The notes under the pieces are model-generated. The model saw only the letters and a list, made by a program, of their open reading frames with translations. It did not search any database and had not been told where the DNA came from. Source: Escherichia phage vB_EcoM_NBG1. Taken from it: a stretch of 64,000 nt of DNA. Positions 95 to 43,076 of the stretch are shown piece after piece. Each line of letters starts with the position of its first letter. The stretch's first letter is position 1. The translations under genes were made by a program, and so were the position numbers. The stretch lies in the sequence record MH243438.1, one strand, 5' to 3'.

Positions 95-424
95 TTATAC
101 TCTAGGCTTTTGAGCTTGTTTGGTATTGGATTCCCATGCGGCTTTGGTAATTTTGTTAGCGGCATAACCAAAGGCATTAGATAGAACACCTTTAGAGTTG
201 AATACATCCAATCCAATAAGTACACCGGCTGTGTTAAATTTAGGAGCAAAGTACGCATTAGTTTTAGAAAGAGCTTTTTTCAATTCAGGGTCTTGAACCA
301 AGCCATCAAAAACGCCTTTACTATTTACTTTGTATGTTACTTTGGGATTTTTACCTTCTTCGATAGCAGCTTTCTGTTCCGCAGATAATGTAACTTCAGT
401 GATAAACTCCTGATATGTTTTCAT
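95..424 (-). CDS. internal-protein-like small protein with capsid-targeting N-terminus (MKTYQEFITE)
   Basis: ATG start; N-terminal decapeptide matches the T4 IPI/IPII/IPIII capsid-targeting sequence ending in Glu (prohead protease site); body unrecognised. Confidence 0.6.
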   Translation of the reverse strand: MKTYQEFITEVTLSAEQKAAIEEGKNPKVTYKVNSKGVFDGLVQDPELKKALSKTNAYFAPKFNTAGVLIGLDVFNSKGVLSNAFGYAANKITKAAWESNTKQAQKPRV

Positions 425-449
425 TTTGTTCCTATTGTTTTAATTTATG

Positions 450-764
450 TTATTCTTTAGGGAAGTTTTTAGAGTATGCATCATAAAGTTTATTACCAAT
501 ACGACGGAAGACTTTAGCTGCAAAACGGTTTTCAGGGTTTTTAATCATGATTTGCATCATGTAAGTTCCTGCATCCGAAAGAGCTTCTTCATAGTACCCA
601 TTAATTTCTTTAAGAGTCCTACGTTTACCACCAGGACCATCAACAGTAATTTTCCATTTACCTGTAGAAGTGCGGCTCGGTGGCTCAACTTGTTCAATCC
701 AAATATAACCACCTTCAACGCGTTGGTTGGCGGATTCTGCAATAAATTCTTTATACGTTTTCAT
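450..764 (-). CDS. internal-protein-like small protein (MKTYKEFIAE)
   Basis: Capsid-targeting-type N-terminus; SD AGGAA upstream; repeated early promoter cassette at 765-826. Confidence 0.6.
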   Translation of the reverse strand: MKTYKEFIAESANQRVEGGYIWIEQVEPPSRTSTGKWKITVDGPGGKRRTLKEINGYYEEALSDAGTYMMQIMIKNPENRFAAKVFRRIGNKLYDAYSKNFPKE

Positions 765-828
765 TTTTTGTTTCCTTGTTTGTTTTGATAGAGTAATTAT
801 ACCATATTAATACTTAAGCGTAAACAAT

Positions 829-1089
829 TTAAGCTTTACCGCCAGAAATAATTCCGAAGTTGTTAAAATCGTATCCAGTATCGTCAACATCCACTTTAGG
901 ACTTGCTACAACATAAGCAATTTCACTACGTTTTGCATAGGTGTTGATTTCTTTACCATCGCCACCTAAGAAAGAATACCCATTACGTTTTAATGAGCCA
1001 AAGTCTTCGGCATCACCAATGAAAGCTTTAACTTTAAATTTAGGACATTTGGCATCTGCTTCAATGATAAATTCTTGATACATTTTCAT
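829..1089 (-). CDS. internal-protein-like small protein (MKMYQEFIIE)
   Basis: Capsid-targeting-type N-terminus; immediately downstream of denV on the minus strand. Confidence 0.55.
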   Translation of the reverse strand: MKMYQEFIIEADAKCPKFKVKAFIGDAEDFGSLKRNGYSFLGGDGKEINTYAKRSEIAYVVASPKVDVDDTGYDFNNFGIISGGKA

Positions 1090-1095
1090 TTTTCC

Positions 1096-1509
1096 TTAGT
1101 AAATTGATTTACCATAGTATTTGTACCAAGTCGGACGTTGAGCAATTTTTTCATCTAAGCGTGCTTGACTTATCGCAATGGACTCTTCGGACGGGATGTA
1201 ATTATTACGAAATTCTACAGGAATGTCGGAAATATCCTGGACTGTCGTGTCCTTGATTTTGAAACCACGTTTCAAACATTCGGCTATTAGCTCGATTTGA
1301 CGTAAACGTAAAAATTCGAGTTTGTCGTAAAAGAATGTTACGTGACCTGTGCCTAAGATAAATGTTGGAGAGATTTTAAAATCTTTTACACGTTTACCAT
1401 TTTGAACATGTTTACGGACTGCACCAAATACGCGTGGTAATTCACGATACTCAGCCATAAGATGTTGGTCGGACAGTTCAGAAACAAGTGTTAAATTGAT
1501 ACGAGTCAT
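1096..1509 (-). CDS. denV: endonuclease V, pyrimidine-dimer DNA glycosylase
   Basis: Near-identical to recalled T4 DenV ([12 protein letters not shown]...[12 protein letters not shown]); start moved to ATG at 1509 (MTRINL) preceded by GGAGG. Confidence 0.9.
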
Positions 1510-1567
1510 AATTTCCTCCAAGTAGTTGATAGATGTATAGTATCAAAGTCCTTGGAGGAAGTAAACA
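1510..1567 (-). promoter_or_regulatory. early promoter cassette with stem-loop (GTTTAC -35, 10-bp inverted repeat TTCCTCCAAG/CTTGGAGGAA, SD) upstream of denV
   Basis: RC of plus gtaaac at ~1561-1566; inverted repeat flanks the -10 region; GGAGG SD before ATG. Confidence 0.5.
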
Positions 1568-1849
1568 CTATTTTTCTGAAGCGCCTGAAATATATTTTTC
1601 AAGACGTTGTTTCATTAGCGAGCCGTTCTTAGCGATTTCTTCTGGTTTATCGCACATACGCAACAAGGCTTCAAGCTTAGCGATATCGCTGGTACGTTCA
1701 AATTTGCGAGTATCTATCTTACTAGCAAGTTCAGAAATACGTGCTAATAGACTTTCGGCTTCAACCAAAGCTGCACCTAACTTAGTTGCAAATGTGTCAG
1801 TAGCTTCATTAAGAATAGATTCTGATAAAAATTCACTATATGTTTTCAT
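1568..1849 (-). CDS. internal-protein-like small protein ([10 protein letters not shown])
   Basis: Internal ATG at 1849 with SD GGAAAG; capsid-targeting-type N-terminus; sits between denV and e where T4 has ipII/ipIII; ATGA overlap with e stop. Confidence 0.6.
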
Positions 1850-2334
1850 ATATACGCTTTCCAAGTTCCTGTTTTAAATGTTGAGATTACGCGTTTCGCG
1901 CGATTAGGTGTCTGACGATACCATTTAGATTGGGCTAGATTTACTGCCGCTTCATCCCAACGTTTCTGTTGAAGCATACGAAGAGAATTAGTAAAACCGG
2001 CGACGCCTGCTACGCCCATTTGGAAGACCATATTGACCAATGCACATCGACGAACCGCATCTAAAGAATCATATACCGGTTTAAGTTTAGCATTACCCAA
2101 GATTCCGCGAACGGCTTTATCAACGTCTTCATTAAATAGCTTTTCAGCCTCATCAAGGGTAATTGTACCGTTGCATTTACGACCGATCATTCTGTCAAGT
2201 TCAGCTTTAGCTACGGCTAAAGACGGGTTCTTTGTTACTAAATGGCCTATGCCAATCGTCCAAAAGCCTTCAGTGTCTTTGTATAAAGTCAGTCTAAGAC
2301 CTTCGTCATTACGAAGCATTTCAAATATATTCAT
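1846..2334 (-). CDS. e: lysozyme (endolysin)
   Basis: Near-identical to recalled T4 lysozyme ([21 protein letters not shown]...); start at ATG 2334 preceded by GGGAGG. Confidence 0.93.
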
Positions 2335-2368
2335 AATACCTCCCACGTTTATAGGAGGTATTTATTAC

Positions 2369-3053: not shown

Positions 3054-3541
3054 CTCAAATTCCTGCATTCGGTAATAAAACGTTCAACTTCATTATTCTT
3101 GGCCTTTATCTTGTCTTTACGTTCCTGTAAACTACTTTTAACAAGATTAATAATGATGCCTACAGTACCGCCGCCAATGATGCCGCCAACAACACTTATG
3201 ATAATAGATGCTAATAAGATAGCAATAATATCAACAAAACCGAAAGAACTCACCTTAGTACTAAAAAACCATACCGACGGTACAAATATAATCCATCCTG
3301 TTATCCATTGGCACTTATTGAAAAACTTTTCAAGCTCAGCTTGAGTTGTTCGTATTACTTCATCGATAGGTTGATATCCATTAATGTATCTGTTCACGAT
3401 AATACCTGCTGGCTGGTCGATTTTAAATTCTTGGCAAATATGTTTCACTAAGTAGGATGGACATCCTGTCCAATCTACTGAATAGTATGAAATACCTTCG
3501 TTGCCATCGTCTATATTAGACCAATATGTTTTGTTAATCAT
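3050..3541 (-). CDS. hypothetical membrane protein with C-terminal FITECR tail
   Basis: Two hydrophobic segments (WITGWIIFVPSVWFF; FVDIIAILLASIIISVVGGIIGGG); C-terminal ...ERFITECRNLR. Confidence 0.55.
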   Translation of the reverse strand: MINKTYWSNIDDGNEGISYYSVDWTGCPSYLVKHICQEFKIDQPAGIIVNRYINGYQPIDEVIRTTQAELEKFFNKCQWITGWIIFVPSVWFFSTKVSSFGFVDIIAILLASIIISVVGGIIGGGTVGIIINLVKSSLQERKDKIKAKNNEVERFITECRNLR

Positions 3542-9473: not shown

Positions 9474-9779
9474 TTAATTTTTCCAACTTAACAACTTGTA
9501 GTGTCCTTCATTCATACATGGTTTATCCCAAGAAATACTAATATATGATTCACCGTCAATAGAAGTCGCCGGGTTTTTCTCTACCGTAAGACCTTCACTT
9601 TCCAGCCATTCAATAGTATTTGCGCATAAATCGGAAGAACACCTCATCGGAAACCTGCAAGATTTTTCACCTTTAGCTGCAGTGTTATACATCTTTTCTA
9701 AAATACGCTTTTGCACGTTTTTAAAAATAGTTTCAGCAGATTCTTCAGATTTTTTATTCAGTTCAGTGTAAAGACTCAT
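9474..9779 (-). CDS. hypothetical protein
   Basis: 101 aa; SD GAGGAAAA; cassette upstream. Confidence 0.5.
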   Translation of the reverse strand: MSLYTELNKKSEESAETIFKNVQKRILEKMYNTAAKGEKSCRFPMRCSSDLCANTIEWLESEGLTVEKNPATSIDGESYISISWDKPCMNEGHYKLLSWKN

Positions 9780-9840
9780 AATATTTTCCTCATGTTTTTA
9801 TAGGTCTATAGTAACACATCTAGGGAAGAAGTAAACAACT
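9780..9840 (-). promoter_or_regulatory. early promoter/stem-loop cassette
   Basis: Minus-strand: GTTTACTTCTTCCCTAGATGTGTTACTATAGACCTATAAAAACATGAGGAAAATATTATG. Confidence 0.55.
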
Positions 9841-9868
9841 TTATGAAATATTTTTATGCCCTAGATGC

Positions 9869-9897
9869 CAAAAAGCCCCAACCTTTCGGAAGGGGCT
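9869..9897 (-). terminator. rho-independent terminator (AGCCCCUUCC-GAAA-GGUUGGGGCU then UUUUU)
   Basis: Long GC stem with GAAA tetraloop followed by U-run on the minus strand, closing the tRNA/small-ORF transcription unit. Confidence 0.6.
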
Positions 9898-9934
9898 ATG
9901 CCTTGCGGCAACCTTGTCGGGGTTCCACCTGCTA

Positions 9935-10205
9935 AGGCAAGTGTTTGTACGAAACGCCGGGATTCGAACCCGGTTATTAAGCAGTTGACGCTACTCAATA
10001 TTTTTAAAAGGCCATATCTCGACCATATCCGAACGTTCCGTCAAAAACGCTACTCGGCTTACGGCAAATATATTTCCTCGAATCGATAATTCTGTGCGCC
10101 GTTTCTGCTGTGATGTAAGGGGATATTAACAAATCGTAAAGATTTATTAAGACCAGTCCTTACTCAGGGAACATCAGTCCGACGACTTACCGGTAGCGAC
10201 CCGGC
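9935..10205 (-). ncRNA. non-coding stretch with tRNA-like T-arm (CCGGGUUCGAAUCCCGG); candidate stable small RNA or tRNA remnant
   Basis: No ORF with SD; perfect T-arm motif at ~9955-9975 but no acceptor-stem partner found; T4 encodes small stable RNAs next to its tRNAs. Confidence 0.25.
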
Positions 10206-12232: not shown

Positions 12233-12520
12233 TTACAGAAGAGTTTTTGCAATAATTTTAAGCTGAGCTACAGAAATATGCTTAGCTTTAAACAGTGCAG
12301 TCTCTTCGGCCGGAGAGATAACAATAGTAGCGCCGTCTTTCTTAGCAGACCATCCATCCCCTAAGTAAACAGTACCTTTTACTTCTTCACCGTCAACCAG
12401 ACTAATCATTGGTTTACCCTCACGTCCTTTATTTGCTTTAATAACTTCGGAAGTAAGGGTTGCTTCGGTCAGAGTAGAAACGTTAGCAACAGGTGATATA
12501 AATTCTTTATAGGTTTTCAT
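12233..12520 (-). CDS. internal-protein-like small protein (MKTYKEFISP...), in the T4 ipI position
   Basis: Capsid-targeting-type N-terminus; lies next to 57B as ipI does in T4; body not recognised. Confidence 0.55.
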   Translation of the reverse strand: MKTYKEFISPVANVSTLTEATLTSEVIKANKGREGKPMISLVDGEEVKGTVYLGDGWSAKKDGATIVISPAEETALFKAKHISVAQLKIIAKTLL

Positions 12521-12597
12521 TTTATTTCCTTGAGGTTGTTTATTTGATAGGATGATAGTAACACACCATCATCCTTATGTAAACTGTTTTGTGAAAA
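12521..12597 (-). promoter_or_regulatory. early promoter/stem-loop cassette (AGGATGAT/ATCATCCT inverted repeat)
   Basis: Minus-strand: CACAAAACAGTTTACATAAGGATGATGGTGTGTTACTATCATCCTATCAAATAAACAACCTCAAGGAAATAAAATG. Confidence 0.55.
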
Positions 12598-39356: not shown

Positions 39357-40928
39357 ATGAAATTTAATATCTTAAGTTTGTTTGCTCCATGGGCAAAAAT
39401 GGACGAACGTGATTACAAAGACCAAGAAAAAGAAAATTTAGAATCTATCACCGCACCAAAATTGGACGACGGCGCTAAAGAATACGAAGTATCTGAAAAT
39501 GAAGCACAGCAAACATATAATGCTATGTTTCAGAGAATGTTCGGTAGTCAAGAACCAGGGCTCAAATCAACCCGTGAATTAATCGATACGTATCGAAATT
39601 TGATGACAAACTATGAAGTGGATAATGCAGTCTCTGAAATAGTTTCCGATGCTATCGTATATGAAGATGATACAGAAGTCGTTTCTATAAATTTAGACAA
39701 CACAAAATTTAGTCCAAATATCAAATCAATGATGTTGGATGAATTTAACGAAGTGTTGAATCATTTATCTTTCCAACGTAAAGGTTCAGATCATTTTAGA
39801 CGTTGGTATGTGGATTCTCGAATTTTCTTCCATAAAATTATTGACCCTAAACGCCCTAAAGAAGGTATTAAAGAGCTTCGTCGTTTAGACCCACGTCAAG
39901 TTCAATATGTCCGTGAAGTTATTACAACCACTGAAGCCGGTGTTAAAATAGTCAAGGGTTATAAAGAATATTTCATTTATGACACATCACACGAATCTTA
40001 TGCTTGTGATGGACGCATATATGAAGCTGGCACAAAAATAAAAATCCCTAAAGCTGCGATTGTTTATGCCCATTCTGGTTTAGTTGATTGTTGTGGTAAA
40101 AATATCATCGGTTATTTGCATCGGGCTATTAAGCCAGCGAACCAATTAAAACTTCTTGAAGATGCTGTCGTAATTTATCGTATTACTCGTGCTCCCGATC
40201 GTCGTGTATGGTACGTTGATACAGGTAATATGCCTTCAAGAAAAGCAGCAGAACATATGCAACATGTTATGAATACGATGAAAAACCGTATTGCATATGA
40301 TGCTACTACAGGCAAGATTAAAAACCAGCAGCATATTATGTCGATGACCGAAGATTATTGGTTACAACGACGTGATGGTAAAGCAGTAACAGAAGTTGAC
40401 ACATTACCAGGTGCAGATAATACTGGAAATATGGAAGATGTACGTTGGTTCCGTAATGCGCTTTATATGGCTTTACGTATTCCTATTACCCGTATTCCAA
40501 GTGACCAAGGTGGTATACAGTTTGATGCTGGTACTTCTATTACACGAGATGAATTATCATTTGGTAAATTTATTCGTGAGCTGCAACATAAATTTGAAGA
40601 GATATTCCTAGACCCGCTTAAAACTAATTTAATTCTTAAAGGAATTATTACAGAAGATGAGTGGAATGATGAAATAAATAATATTAAGATAAAATTTCAT
40701 CGGGATAGTTATTTCTCGGAATTAAAGGATGCTGAGATTCTGGAGCGTCGCATTAATATGCTTCAGATGGCCGAACCATTTATTGGTAAATATATTTCTC
40801 ACAGAACAGCTATGAAAGATATTCTTCAGATGTCTGACGAGGAAATTGAACAAGAGGCTAAGCAAATTGAAGAAGAGTCGAAAGAGGCTCGTTTCCAAGA
40901 CCCCGACCAAGAACAAGAGGATTTTTAA
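39357..40928 (+). CDS. 20: portal vertex protein gp20
   Basis: 523 aa, synteny. Confidence 0.93.
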
Positions 40929-41164
40929 TGGACGATTTAATTCAAGCTATTAAATCAAACGACCTCGTTGCTACTCGAAAGTTTTTTGAAAGTGCAATGG
41001 CAGAAAAAACGGTTCGTTTGATTGAAGCACGCAAAGCAGAAATCGCTTCTCAATTTTTGATTGAAGGCGAAGAACCTGAAGAAGAAAAGAAAGCTAAAGC
41101 TTCGGAAGACGACGCTGATGAAGGCGATGACGACGAAGACGATGATGATGAGGACGATGAATAA
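40928..41164 (+). CDS. 67: prohead core protein gp67
   Basis: 78 aa with poly-acidic C-terminus ([19 protein letters not shown]). Confidence 0.85.
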
Positions 41165-41589
41165 TGTATCTTATCCCTGAATCTTATGAATTGGTACTCG
41201 AAAATGTCGAAGCACTTATTCCTGAAGCACAGGGCCGAATCGATGCATTGTCTTCTGCTCTCGATATTGACGATATAAATACTATTATCGAGAACATGCT
41301 TGAAACTGAAACGGATTTAGCTGTTGCAATGGCTTCCATTATTAATGAAGAACAGTTAAATGAGTTTATCGTTAAACATGTTTCTTCTCGTGGTGAAGTC
41401 ACCCGCACTAAAGACCGTAAAACTCGTGAACGTAACGCGTTCCAAACAACTGGTCTTTCTAAAGCAAAACGTAGACAAATCGCTCGTAAGGTCGTTAAAG
41501 CTAAAAAAGCTAACCCTTCAGGCCAAGTTAAAGGCTTGCGTAAGCGTAAAAAGGCTCTTAAACGTCGTAAAGCATTAGGATTAAGCTAA
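41164..41589 (+). CDS. 68: prohead core protein gp68
   Basis: 141 aa, synteny. Confidence 0.85.
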
Positions 41590-42230
41590 TGAATAAACCC
41601 GAGTTACTTATTGAAACTTGGGGTCAACCCGGTGAGATTATTGATGGCGTTCCAATGTTGGAATCTCATGATGGAAAAGATTCTGGCTTAAAACCAGGGC
41701 TTTATATAGAAGGTATTTTTCTTCAGGCAGAGGTTGTTAACCGAAATAAACGTTTATATCCTAAACGCGTTTTGGAAAAAGCAGTAAGTGACTATATTAA
41801 AGAACAAGTCGCAACCAAACAAGCCCTTGGAGAATTAAACCATCCACCTCGTGCAAATGTTGACCCTATGCAAGCCGCTATCATTATTGAAGATATGTGG
41901 TGGAAAGGAAACGATGTATATGGACGTGCTAGAATTATTGAAGGCGACCATGGTCCCGGCGATAAATTAGCTGCTAATATACGAGCTGGTTGGATTCCAG
42001 GTGTTTCCTCTCGTGGTCTTGGTTCTTTAACCGACACCAATAAAGGGTACCGTATCGTGAACGAAGGATTTAAATTAACCGTCGGCGTAGATGCCGTATG
42101 GGGACCTTCTGCTCCAGATGCTTGGGTTACTCCTAAACAAATATCAGAATCAGAAAATTCGGTGGAAACCACCAAAAACAGTGCTGATGAAGCATTTAAA
42201 GCTCTCGCAGAGAGTTTAAAAGCATTATAA
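41589..42230 (+). CDS. 21: prohead core scaffold protein and protease gp21
   Basis: 213 aa, synteny. Confidence 0.9.
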   Translation: MNKPELLIETWGQPGEIIDGVPMLESHDGKDSGLKPGLYIEGIFLQAEVVNRNKRLYPKRVLEKAVSDYIKEQVATKQALGELNHPPRANVDPMQAAIIIEDMWWKGNDVYGRARIIEGDHGPGDKLAANIRAGWIPGVSSRGLGSLTDTNKGYRIVNEGFKLTVGVDAVWGPSAPDAWVTPKQISESENSVETTKNSADEAFKALAESLKAL

Positions 42231-42263: not shown

Positions 42264-43076
42264 ATGATCAAAGAACAACTTTTGAAAGAAGCTCAGAACA
42301 TCGAGACTTCAGTTGCTCTTAATAGTGTTTTCGAATCAGTAGAACTGTCTCCGGACGTTAAAGCTAATTTCAGCACTGTATTCGAAGCCACCGTTAAGCA
42401 GGAAGCAGTCAAGCTGGCTGAATCTCATATCAAAGCCATCGCCGAAAAAGCCGAAGAAGAAGTTGAAAAGGCTAAAGAAGATGCTGAAGAGAAAGCTGAT
42501 AAAAAATTGGCTGAACAAGCTTCTAAATTCCTAGACCATCTTGCAAAAGAATGGCTCGCAGAAAACCAAATCGCAGTTGATAAAGGCATTAAAGCTGATT
42601 TGTTCGAATCCATGCTTGGTGGTCTGAAAGAACTGTTTGTTGAACATAACGTTGTTGTTCCAGAAGAATCTGTAGATGTTGTAGCAGAAATGGAAGAAGA
42701 GCTGGCCGAACATAAAGAAGAAACCGCTCGTTTGTTCGAAGAAGTTACCAAACGTGATGCATATATCAATTACGTTCAGCGTGAAACCGCTATTAATGAA
42801 AGCGTAAAAGACCTGACTGAATCTCAGAAAGAAAAAGTTATTGGCCTAGTTGAAGGTATGGATTATTCTGACGCATTTGGTACTAAGTTAACTGCTATTG
42901 TAGAAATGGTTAAAGGTTCTACTAAAGAAGAAGCCGCTATTACCGAAAGTATAAATACAGTTGACAATGACGCTGCCGGTCTTAATTTTGTTGCCGAAGC
43001 AGTTGACACTACCACAACTCAGGTAGAACAGAATTCTAATGTAAGTTTATATGCGAAAGTCGCATCTCGTTTCTAA
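42264..43076 (+). CDS. 22: prohead core scaffold protein gp22
   Basis: 270 aa, acidic coiled-coil. Confidence 0.9.
   Translation: MIKEQLLKEAQNIETSVALNSVFESVELSPDVKANFSTVFEATVKQEAVKLAESHIKAIAEKAEEEVEKAKEDAEEKADKKLAEQASKFLDHLAKEWLAENQIAVDKGIKADLFESMLGGLKELFVEHNVVVPEESVDVVAEMEEELAEHKEETARLFEEVTKRDAYINYVQRETAINESVKDLTESQKEKVIGLVEGMDYSDAFGTKLTAIVEMVKGSTKEEAAITESINTVDNDAAGLNFVAEAVDTTTTQVEQNSNVSLYAKVASRF

Follow-up and report, generated by a model that had tools for sequence, protein, structure and literature searches.

The closest described counterparts of the genes analysed here are the internal proteins (Ips) of T4 and its relatives, several of which act against restriction. T4 Ip1, Ip2 and Ip3 each block a distinct GmrSD type IV nuclease (PMC12373910); T4 IPI is a GmrSD inhibitor (PMC6024577), IPII/IPIII inhibit GmrSD of ECOR21/ECOR17 (PMC12373910), and IPIII lacking its leader is active in the cytoplasm (PMC9391042). 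In addition, the leader-bearing protein Bas37_0260, encoded at the ipI locus of Bas37 (identified as phage KarlGJung), is an McrBC inhibitor according to the HIDEN-SEQ preprint (10.1101/2025.11.20.689424). Mutational work has established that Tyr4 and Phe7 of the leader are required for targeting and Glu10 for processing (PMC9026906). Polymorphic ip cassettes of T-even phages, the Ip4-Ip13 series, go back to Repoila et al. (1994, EMBO J 13:4181), as cited in PMC12373910.

The window, that is the whole 64 kb stretch of DNA that was analysed, shares 97.6-99% identity with RB69 and further phages of Mosigvirus, and its denV-region layout is common to at least 73 sequenced phages. Five minus-strand ORFs begin MK(T/M)YxEF(I/L) and sit in the two ip hotspots, e-denV-vs.8 and 57B-tRNA.4, an arrangement that is the same in other genera. 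These genes, their neighbours and the head genes that bear on them are as follows.

95..424, minus strand: IPa, which is RB69ORF123c; 109 aa, leader MKTYQEFITE, predicted mature part of 99 aa with pI 9.7.
450..764, minus strand: IPb, which is Ip10; 104 aa, leader MKTYKEFIAE, predicted mature part of 94 aa with pI 9.6.
796..824, minus strand: promoter-like site of T4-early type before IPb; TTTACG, 17 nt, TG-TATAAT.
829..1089, minus strand: IPc, which is RB69ORF125c; 86 aa, leader MKMYQEFIIE, predicted mature part of 76 aa with pI 6.4.
1096..1509, minus strand: denV, pyrimidine-dimer glycosylase; Pfam Pyr_excise, E 5e-14, and RB69 annotation.
1568..1849, minus strand: IPd, which is RB69ORF127c; 93 aa, leader ending LSE at residue 10, mature part of 83 aa with pI 6.3.
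1846..2334, minus strand: endolysin e, upstream neighbour of IPd; Pfam Phage_lysozyme.
12233..12520, minus strand: ipI, the T4 IPI orthologue; 95 aa, start MKTYKEFISPVANVSTLTE; Pfam IPI_T4, E 1.3e-50.
40928-41164: gp67, just upstream of gp21-gp22; Pfam GP67, E 4.7e-20.
41164-41589: gp68, assigned by ORF position and RB69 synteny.
41589..42230, plus strand: gp21 prohead protease; Pfam Peptidase_S77, E 2.8e-107.
42264..43076, plus strand: gp22 scaffolding core protein; Pfam T4_CASP, E 1.5e-89.

The leader sets these five ORFs apart from everything else in the window. A six-frame translation of the 64 kb contains MK.Y.EF at exactly five sites, all of them ORF starts. When all start codons followed by 45 or more codons were scored less strictly, over seven positions, the five Ip ORFs reached 7, 7, 7, 7 and 6, with the next best at an unconvincing 5. 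Because the motif is confined to the five ORF starts and the next candidates reach only 5, chance is excluded. Tyr4, Phe7 and Ile or Leu at position 8 are present in all five leaders and Glu10 in four; judged by their residues, these are genuine capsid-targeting leaders of the T4 type. Each propeptide is closed by an (L/I)-x-Glu motif, a predicted cleavage site, which reads ITE, IAE, IIE and LSE at residue 10 in IPa, IPb, IPc and IPd, respectively, and LTE at residue 19 in IPI; in IPd, LNE at residues 13-15 is another possible site. The gp21 protease encoded in the window is the enzyme expected to take off the leaders.

The original prediction of five ORFs with a T4-type targeting leader is borne out at all five positions, with the corrections that the third ORF has Met at position 3 and that the fifth is without Glu10. 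Its cleavage motif had two residues before the glutamate, where there is one, and its end of the array at 1864 belongs to a TTG-extended ORF, the ATG of IPd lying at 1849. The span 95-1864 does contain Ip genes, but it also holds denV, a conserved gene for a non-internal protein inside the cassette array. Nor does T4 carry unrelated ORFs on the far side of denV, as had been supposed: its denV-vs.8 interval is an empty 26-nt gap, so that the three genes found there are an insertion relative to T4 rather than a replacement.

The array is tightly packed, with the IPd ATG overlapping the stop codon of e (ATGA) and IPc starting 7 nt past the denV stop. No exact late promoter (TATAAATA) lies beside the Ip genes on the minus strand, so late expression would have to come by read-through or by coupling to e. 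The promoter-like site at 796..824, a consensus match alone, has 10/12 matches and an extended -10; an early-type promoter-like site also precedes ipI. The Shine-Dalgarno sequence of denV lies within a hairpin (dG -19.2, z -5.1) that also encloses an early-promoter-like site, and that of e is sequestered by a hairpin with UAUAAAC in its loop.

The match to IPI_T4 and to T4 IPI* (PDB 2JUB) is confined to ORF 12233-12520, the other four ORFs being without one. Its propeptide has 19 residues and ends in LTE (17-19), the first (L/I)xE site, in agreement with where mature T4 IPI* begins, leaving a mature part of 76 aa. Residues 20-95 are identical to T4 IPI* at 72/76 positions, and no residue of the mature part differs from RB69 IPI, which has been reported to differ from T4 IPI in four residues (PMC6024577).

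The mature parts of the other ORFs had been described as unrecognised along with that of IPI, a description that does not fit all of them: ORF5 is IPI, ORF2 is Ip10, and RefSeq RB69 labels ORF3 and ORF4 (IPc and IPd) "internal head protein". IPb falls into one 90%-identity cluster with CAA84455, the phage Pol protein that received the name Ip10 in 1994 ("Ip10 [Enterobacteria phage Pol]"). Its identity is 71% to SP18 Ip10 and 48-55% to Karamvirus homologues, and it matches 189 phage records; some database entries of its family are labelled "IpII" or "internal head protein III". A CsgH-like beta-sandwich for IPb, suggested by a weak Pfam match (E 0.074) and PDB 2n59 (E 0.069), found no support in the fold search and is a lead only. 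Mature IPc alone matches phrog_2667, "internal head protein" (E 2e-11), and 217 phage records match IPc, including Gaprivervirus SP18, with names that give Escherichia, Shigella, Salmonella and Proteus hosts. IPd matches phrog_3499, "internal head protein" (E 5e-40), and is 47-54% identical to Ip5. Ip5 is bas37_0261, and we rejected IPd as a homologue of the McrBC inhibitor Bas37_0260, which is the product of the adjoining gene and has no similarity to the window proteins.

IPa carries neither a name nor an "internal protein" label in the database records examined, where it is "hypothetical" throughout. By tblastn it occurs in 90 phage records, 76 of them at 95% identity or more (Mosigvirus), and relatives of 32% identity adjoin denV in Dhakavirus. 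In an exhaustive HMMER search, mature IPa recovered itself and a single leader-bearing relative of 33% identity; its other matches, weak and to long or repeat-containing proteins, were judged noise. IPa and IPb both match phrog_3966, and paralogy between the two was considered and rejected, as the hhalign probability of 93.8% with the leader fell to 0.14% once the leader was trimmed.

The four non-IPI bodies have no detectable relation to each other; aside from the weak Pfam match of IPb, IPa-IPd have no match in NCBIfam or Pfam, and a PDB sequence search gave no relatives for them, nor for T4 IPII or IPIII. Word-indexed homologue searches yielded close relatives only (3, 12 and 2 proteins). 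The structural modelling proposed with the original prediction was of little help, with AlphaFold2 mean pLDDT of 46.8 for IPb (3-sequence alignment) and 44.9 for IPc (5-sequence alignment), too poor to interpret, and a Foldseek search of the IPb model (pLDDT 46.8) against the PDB found nothing at E <= 0.001.

At both loci, Ip cassettes are gained and lost among relatives. With denV set aside, all genes from e to vs.8 bear the leader in phi25-307, S143_2, SP18, PSD9 and CC31, and an extra 347-bp cassette in RB69 has an identical promoter, 5'UTR and leader start on its flanks. The set in the window is therefore not unusually expanded, as had been proposed, since RB69 has six leader-bearing genes and phi25-307 at least seven.

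Taken together, we regard it as likely that the five ORFs are members of the T4-type Ip system of an RB69-like Mosigvirus, packaged, injected and probably anti-restriction. In such a model, the leader, the first ten residues, would bring each small protein into the gp22/gp67/gp68 prohead scaffolding core, gp21 would cut past (I/L)-x-Glu at residue 10 in four proteins and at residue 19 in IPI, and the mature proteins of 76-99 residues would remain inside the head, many copies of each, until injected with the DNA. For the window Ips, packaging, cleavage and injection are expected from experiments with T4; a literature search for virion proteomics or processing data on Mosigvirus Ips did not find any. 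The bodies are interchangeable cassettes at the two hotspots, apparently gained, lost and moved through recombination in the common leader and 5'UTR DNA. IPI blocks GmrSD-type modification-dependent nucleases; IPa, IPb, IPc and IPd, by analogy, most likely have anti-restriction activity too, each against one first-response defence, most probably another type IV restriction enzyme that would attack the sugar-modified cytosine DNA of Mosigvirus-type phages. GmrSD-family enzymes do act on Mosigvirus DNA as a substrate (PMC6024577; PMC13390438). The near-neutral pI of IPc and IPd (6.3-6.4), unlike the basic T4 IPs, counts against this model, as does the lack of an exact late promoter beside the genes.

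Charge also bears on the main alternative, namely that the proteins are packaged mainly as structural or physical parts, for charge neutralisation, DNA condensation or an IPIII-like aid to assembly, without any particular target in the host. A basic pI (9.0-9.7) is seen for IPa, IPb and IPI*, which resemble T4 IPII and IPIII in this; in T4, lysines of the internal proteins touch DNA phosphates, and heads of an IPIII mutant assemble more slowly (PMC3012670; PMC9026906). However, the non-basic IPc and IPd fit such a role poorly, unrelated bodies swapped freely among phages and loci are typical of arms-race accessory genes, and 4/4 T-even Ips with an assigned function inhibit restriction, so that we consider a mainly structural role unlikely.

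Decay was suggested by the RB69 reference record (AY303349), in which the leader of ORF127c is scrambled (MKTYMNFYQN), Glu10 of ORF123c is replaced by Ala and ORF124c has a C-terminal frameshift, as if some Ip genes were decaying and their products had dropped out of packaging or use. Yet leaders and frames are intact in the window and in all sampled cluster members, the leader being canonical in those of IPa and IPd, and the exact IPa, IPb and IPd sequences of the window each occur on 108-220 contigs. Given this, the RB69 variants are outliers, from old sequencing errors or laboratory-strain mutations, and decay is a very improbable account. Least probable of all, by a shade, is that the genes of IPa-IPd are merely T4 IPII and IPIII orthologues that have diverged. 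They do share the e-denV neighbourhood with ipII and ipIII and, through the IPb family, some database labels, but in BLAST the alignments to both T4 proteins stop within residues 1-18 (the leader), the T4 proteins belong to phrog_7857 (IPII) and phrog_5341 (IPIII) whereas the window mature parts match only phrog_3966, 2667 and 3499, and true IPII and IPIII orthologues lie beside IPa-IPd in phi25-307 and S143_2, an outcome in line with the original prediction.

Within the injected anti-restriction reading, the targets may not all be of one kind. Ten ip genes tried on further GmrSD groups gave no new inhibitory pairs (Silas et al.), so type IV targets are not guaranteed for every Ip. Here we speculate, with some reserve, that at least one cassette has a target beyond the GmrSD and McrBC nucleases for which an Ip inhibitor has been described; IPa, which is restricted to Mosigvirus, and the two non-basic proteins, IPc and IPd, would be the best candidates. 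Such a target might be an enzyme that acts specifically on arabinosylated 5-hydroxycytosine DNA or a first-response defence other than restriction, and if this were true, the array would represent a broader injected anti-defence arsenal.

The observation is real, but it is of a kind already known, as variable leader-bearing Ip sets have been described since 1994. Injected counter-defence is already the published view of such proteins (PMC3012670; PMC12373910; 10.1101/2025.11.20.689424), and the leader and the loci are likewise in print. The main value of the present analysis thus lies in annotation and in a target list of four abundant, probably injected proteins from widespread coliphages that are therapeutic candidates, and pairing each Ip with its host defence would help to explain the host range of Mosigvirus.

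Among the nearest known systems is T4 IPI (PF11634, 2JUB), which inhibits GmrSD of E. coli CT596 and is like the window IPI in its locus beside 57B and its 19-residue propeptide ending LTE; the window IPI differs in four mature-part substitutions and in Pro in place of Glu at leader position 10. The DNA to be protected differs as well, carrying arabinosylated cytosine derivatives in RB69-like phages and glucosylated ones in T4 (PMC6024577, PMC13390438). T4 IPII and IPIII are alike in leader, neighbourhood, size class (IPII) and presumed delivery, with no similarity in their bodies, and Bas37_0260 has the same leader (MKTYQEFIAE) and lies beside Ip5 at the ipI locus, with no BLAST similarity to the five window proteins. 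The T-even Ip4-Ip13 cassettes share with the window genes a common leader, unrelated bodies and a hotspot location; IPb is Ip10 itself, and IPd is Ip5-like, with the difference that Ip5 occupies the ipI locus in Tequatroviruses whereas its relative here lies at the e-denV locus.

The five leader-bearing internal-protein (Ip) genes are a real feature that was correctly recognised, but such sets are standard in this group of phages and have been described repeatedly. All five predicted ORFs, IPa to IPd and ipI, were found on the minus strand, where the gene order is e, IPd, denV, IPc, IPb, IPa:

2334-2362, minus strand: RNA hairpin over the e Shine-Dalgarno (dG -16.3 kcal/mol, z -3.8)
1846-2334, minus strand: e
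1568-1849, minus strand: IPd
1510-1560, minus strand: RNA hairpin UUCCUCCAAG...CUUGGAGGAA (dG -19.2 kcal/mol, z -5.1)
1096-1509, minus strand: denV
829-1089, minus strand: IPc
796-824: T4-early-type promoter-like site preceding IPb (consensus match)
450-764, minus strand: IPb
95-424, minus strand: IPa
12233-12520, minus strand: ipI

The gene vs.8 lies just past the left end of the window, and the fifth ORF adjoins 57B, 57A and gene 1, the classical ipI position. A nucleotide search with the first 2.4 kb matched 506 phage records, 73 of which covered at least 80% of the query at one place. Near-identity to the closest record, Escherichia phage vB_Eco_F31 (99.0%), and to RB69 (AY303349, positions 63355-65752, 97.6%) indicates that this is an RB69-like Mosigvirus (Straboviridae, Tevenvirinae). 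Dozens of sequenced genomes share this arrangement, and the 'expanded set' is not unusual.

A six-frame scan of the window for MK.Y.EF hit the first codon of each of the five ip ORFs and no other site, and in a looser seven-position scan of every possible start codon the five ORFs scored 7, 7, 7, 7 and 6, lower scorers being unconvincing. All five carry the capsid-targeting leader, although the predicted MKTY start reads MKMY in IPc. The true start of the fourth ORF is an ATG at position 1849 that shares bases with the e stop codon (ATGA); the 1864 end of the noted range belongs to a TTG-extended ORF. Tyr4, Phe7 and Ile/Leu8 are invariant, and four of the five leaders have Glu10; ipI lacks it and has LTE (residues 17-19) as its first (L/I)xE. 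In T4 IPIII, mutations at residues 4 and 7 affect targeting and those at residues 8 and 10 affect processing (PMC9026906). Since synonymous positions vary among the five leaders, the motif is kept at the protein level and not through recent DNA duplication.

The possibility that the bodies, i.e. the proteins minus their leaders, are simply diverged IPII or IPIII is contradicted by BLAST alignments of the non-IPI proteins, which stop within the first 10-18 residues and hence cover the leader only, by PHROG families distinct from those of T4 IPII (phrog_7857) and IPIII (phrog_5341), and by true orthologues alongside: phi25-307 has both IPII and IPIII in the IPa-IPb interval, S143_2 only IPIII. 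IPa and IPb both match phrog_3966, and their hhalign probability collapses from 93.8% to 0.14% once the leader is trimmed, so that their likeness is a leader effect. Sequence comparison thus identifies the four non-IPI bodies as neither IPII/IPIII derivatives nor paralogues of one another.

Nor were the mature parts as unrecognised as had been proposed: one is IPI, one was named in 1994 and two are annotated internal head proteins. ORF 12233-12520 is identified as IPI by its match to Pfam IPI_T4 (E 1.3e-50) and by 72 identities in an end-to-end alignment of residues 20-95 with the 76-residue NMR structure 2JUB. RB69 IPI has exactly the same mature part; it is described as carrying four residue differences from T4 IPI and as stopping GmrSD-family enzymes from restricting RB69 infection (PMC6024577). 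IPb is assigned as Ip10, named in 1994, as it clusters at 90% identity with 'Ip10 [Enterobacteria phage Pol]' (CAA84455); its identity is 71% to the Ip10 of Shigella phage SP18 and, in Karamvirus, 48-55% to denV-adjoining proteins. IPd, in phrog_3499 'internal head protein', is identified as an Ip5 relative by 47-54% identity to annotated ip5 of Tequatroviruses, in which the gene lies in the ipI locus and not between e and denV. IPc belongs to phrog_2667 'internal head protein', together with RB69p156. IPa is the least characterised of the five: it is found at ≥95% identity in 76 phage records, is labelled 'hypothetical' in every record examined, and has denV-adjoining relatives in Dhakavirus (32% identity).

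An exhaustive HMMER search with IPa returned one distant leader-bearing relative only; its weak matches to long or repeat-containing proteins, e.g. MBG-domain proteins, are probably compositional noise. The mature part of IPa repeats an NSKGV motif (KVNSKGVFDG, VFNSKGVLSN). For IPb, CsgH, an inhibitor of curli (Pfam PF21112, E 0.074; PDB 2n59, E 0.069), and myomesin Ig domains gave weak matches over almost the full length, hinting at a possible small beta-sandwich that the fold search did not corroborate. The proposed structure predictions were unreliable (AlphaFold2 pLDDT 46.8 for IPb, 44.9 for IPc), Foldseek with the IPb model returned nothing significant, and a PDB sequence search found no relatives for IPa-IPd or for T4 IPII and IPIII.

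Processing and scaffold proteins are also encoded in the window, including gp67 and an ORF syntenic with gp68:

41589-42230: gp21 prohead protease (Peptidase_S77, E 2.8e-107)
42264-43076: gp22 scaffold

By T4 precedent, the window Ips would be packaged, cleaved and injected; a literature search found no Mosigvirus virion proteomics.

Expression signals in the window are consensus matches only. GTTTAC-spacer-TAnnnT sites, spotted by eye, precede ipI and denV, and 7 nt separate the denV stop from the IPc start. There are 19 copies of the T4 late-promoter octamer TATAAATA in the window against ~8 expected, with 14 on the plus strand and 17 at 16-59 kb, the structural-gene part. Since exact TATAAATA is absent from the minus strand near any of the five ip genes, the late synthesis that prohead loading requires is inferred, e.g. 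from IPd-e coupling. The 1510-1560 hairpin pairs the denV Shine-Dalgarno and encloses an early-promoter-like GTTTAC...TACTAT, so that the ribosome site would be hidden in read-through transcripts and exposed in those begun inside the loop. The e hairpin carries a late-promoter-like UAUAAAC in its loop, an arrangement similar to that known for T4 gene e, and IPd may share the late control of e because its start overlaps the e stop codon.

The idea of injected counter-defence proteins was not new, as the literature already states the same hypothesis. IPIII is needed on ECOR17, where host-expressed IPIII works without its leader (Srikant et al., PMC9391042). At least ten Ips have been reported. 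Each of Ip1, Ip2 and Ip3 blocks its own GmrSD enzyme and gives no cross-protection, and ten ip genes set against further GmrSD groups yielded no new pairs (Silas et al. 2025, PMC12373910). The leader-bearing Bas37_0260 of the ipI locus inhibits McrBC (HIDEN-SEQ preprint, 10.1101/2025.11.20.689424); we traced Bas37 to phage KarlGJung, where this inhibitor adjoins Ip5, and found no similarity to any of the five window proteins. Mosigvirus DNA contains arabinosylated cytosine derivatives, and GmrSD-family enzymes, BrxU among them, cut it (PMC6024577; PMC13390438), which makes type IV nucleases plausible targets of the window Ips. By analogy, IPa-IPd may act against host defences, and the value left lies in four candidate injected proteins to pair with targets, among them IPa, which no record examined annotates as an internal protein.

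Three internal-protein genes, ORF123c, ORF124c and ORF127c, differ between the RB69 record and the window and were compared over these stretches (RB69 coordinates are those of stretch L001 of AY303349):

1595-1924, with window 95-424
1993-2265, with window 450-764
3068-3349, with window 1568-1849

ORF127c starts MKTYMNFYQN, its leader destroyed apparently by a compensated double frameshift, ORF123c has Ala instead of the cleavage Glu10, and a C-terminal frameshift leaves ORF124c with 90 aa instead of 104 aa. As every cluster member sampled for IPa and IPd has the canonical leader, the RB69 variants are put down to old errors of sequencing or to mutations of the laboratory strain. RB69 also has an extra 347-bp cassette in the ipI-57B interval, the leader-bearing RB69p156 (108 aa, phrog_2667), which the window lacks (window 12521-12597 compared with 9750-10187 of RB69 stretch L004). 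On the 57B side, window ipI and RB69p156 share an identical promoter and 5'UTR of ~70 nt as well as identical first leader codons, which suggests gain or loss through recombination within the shared leader region. Whereas the denV-vs.8 gap in T4 is just 26 nt, Mosigvirus, Gaprivervirus, Dhakavirus and Karamvirus have 1-5 leader-bearing genes in this place, all starting MKTY(Q/K/N)(E/Q)F(I/M), and gene content identifies both ip loci as cassette hotspots.
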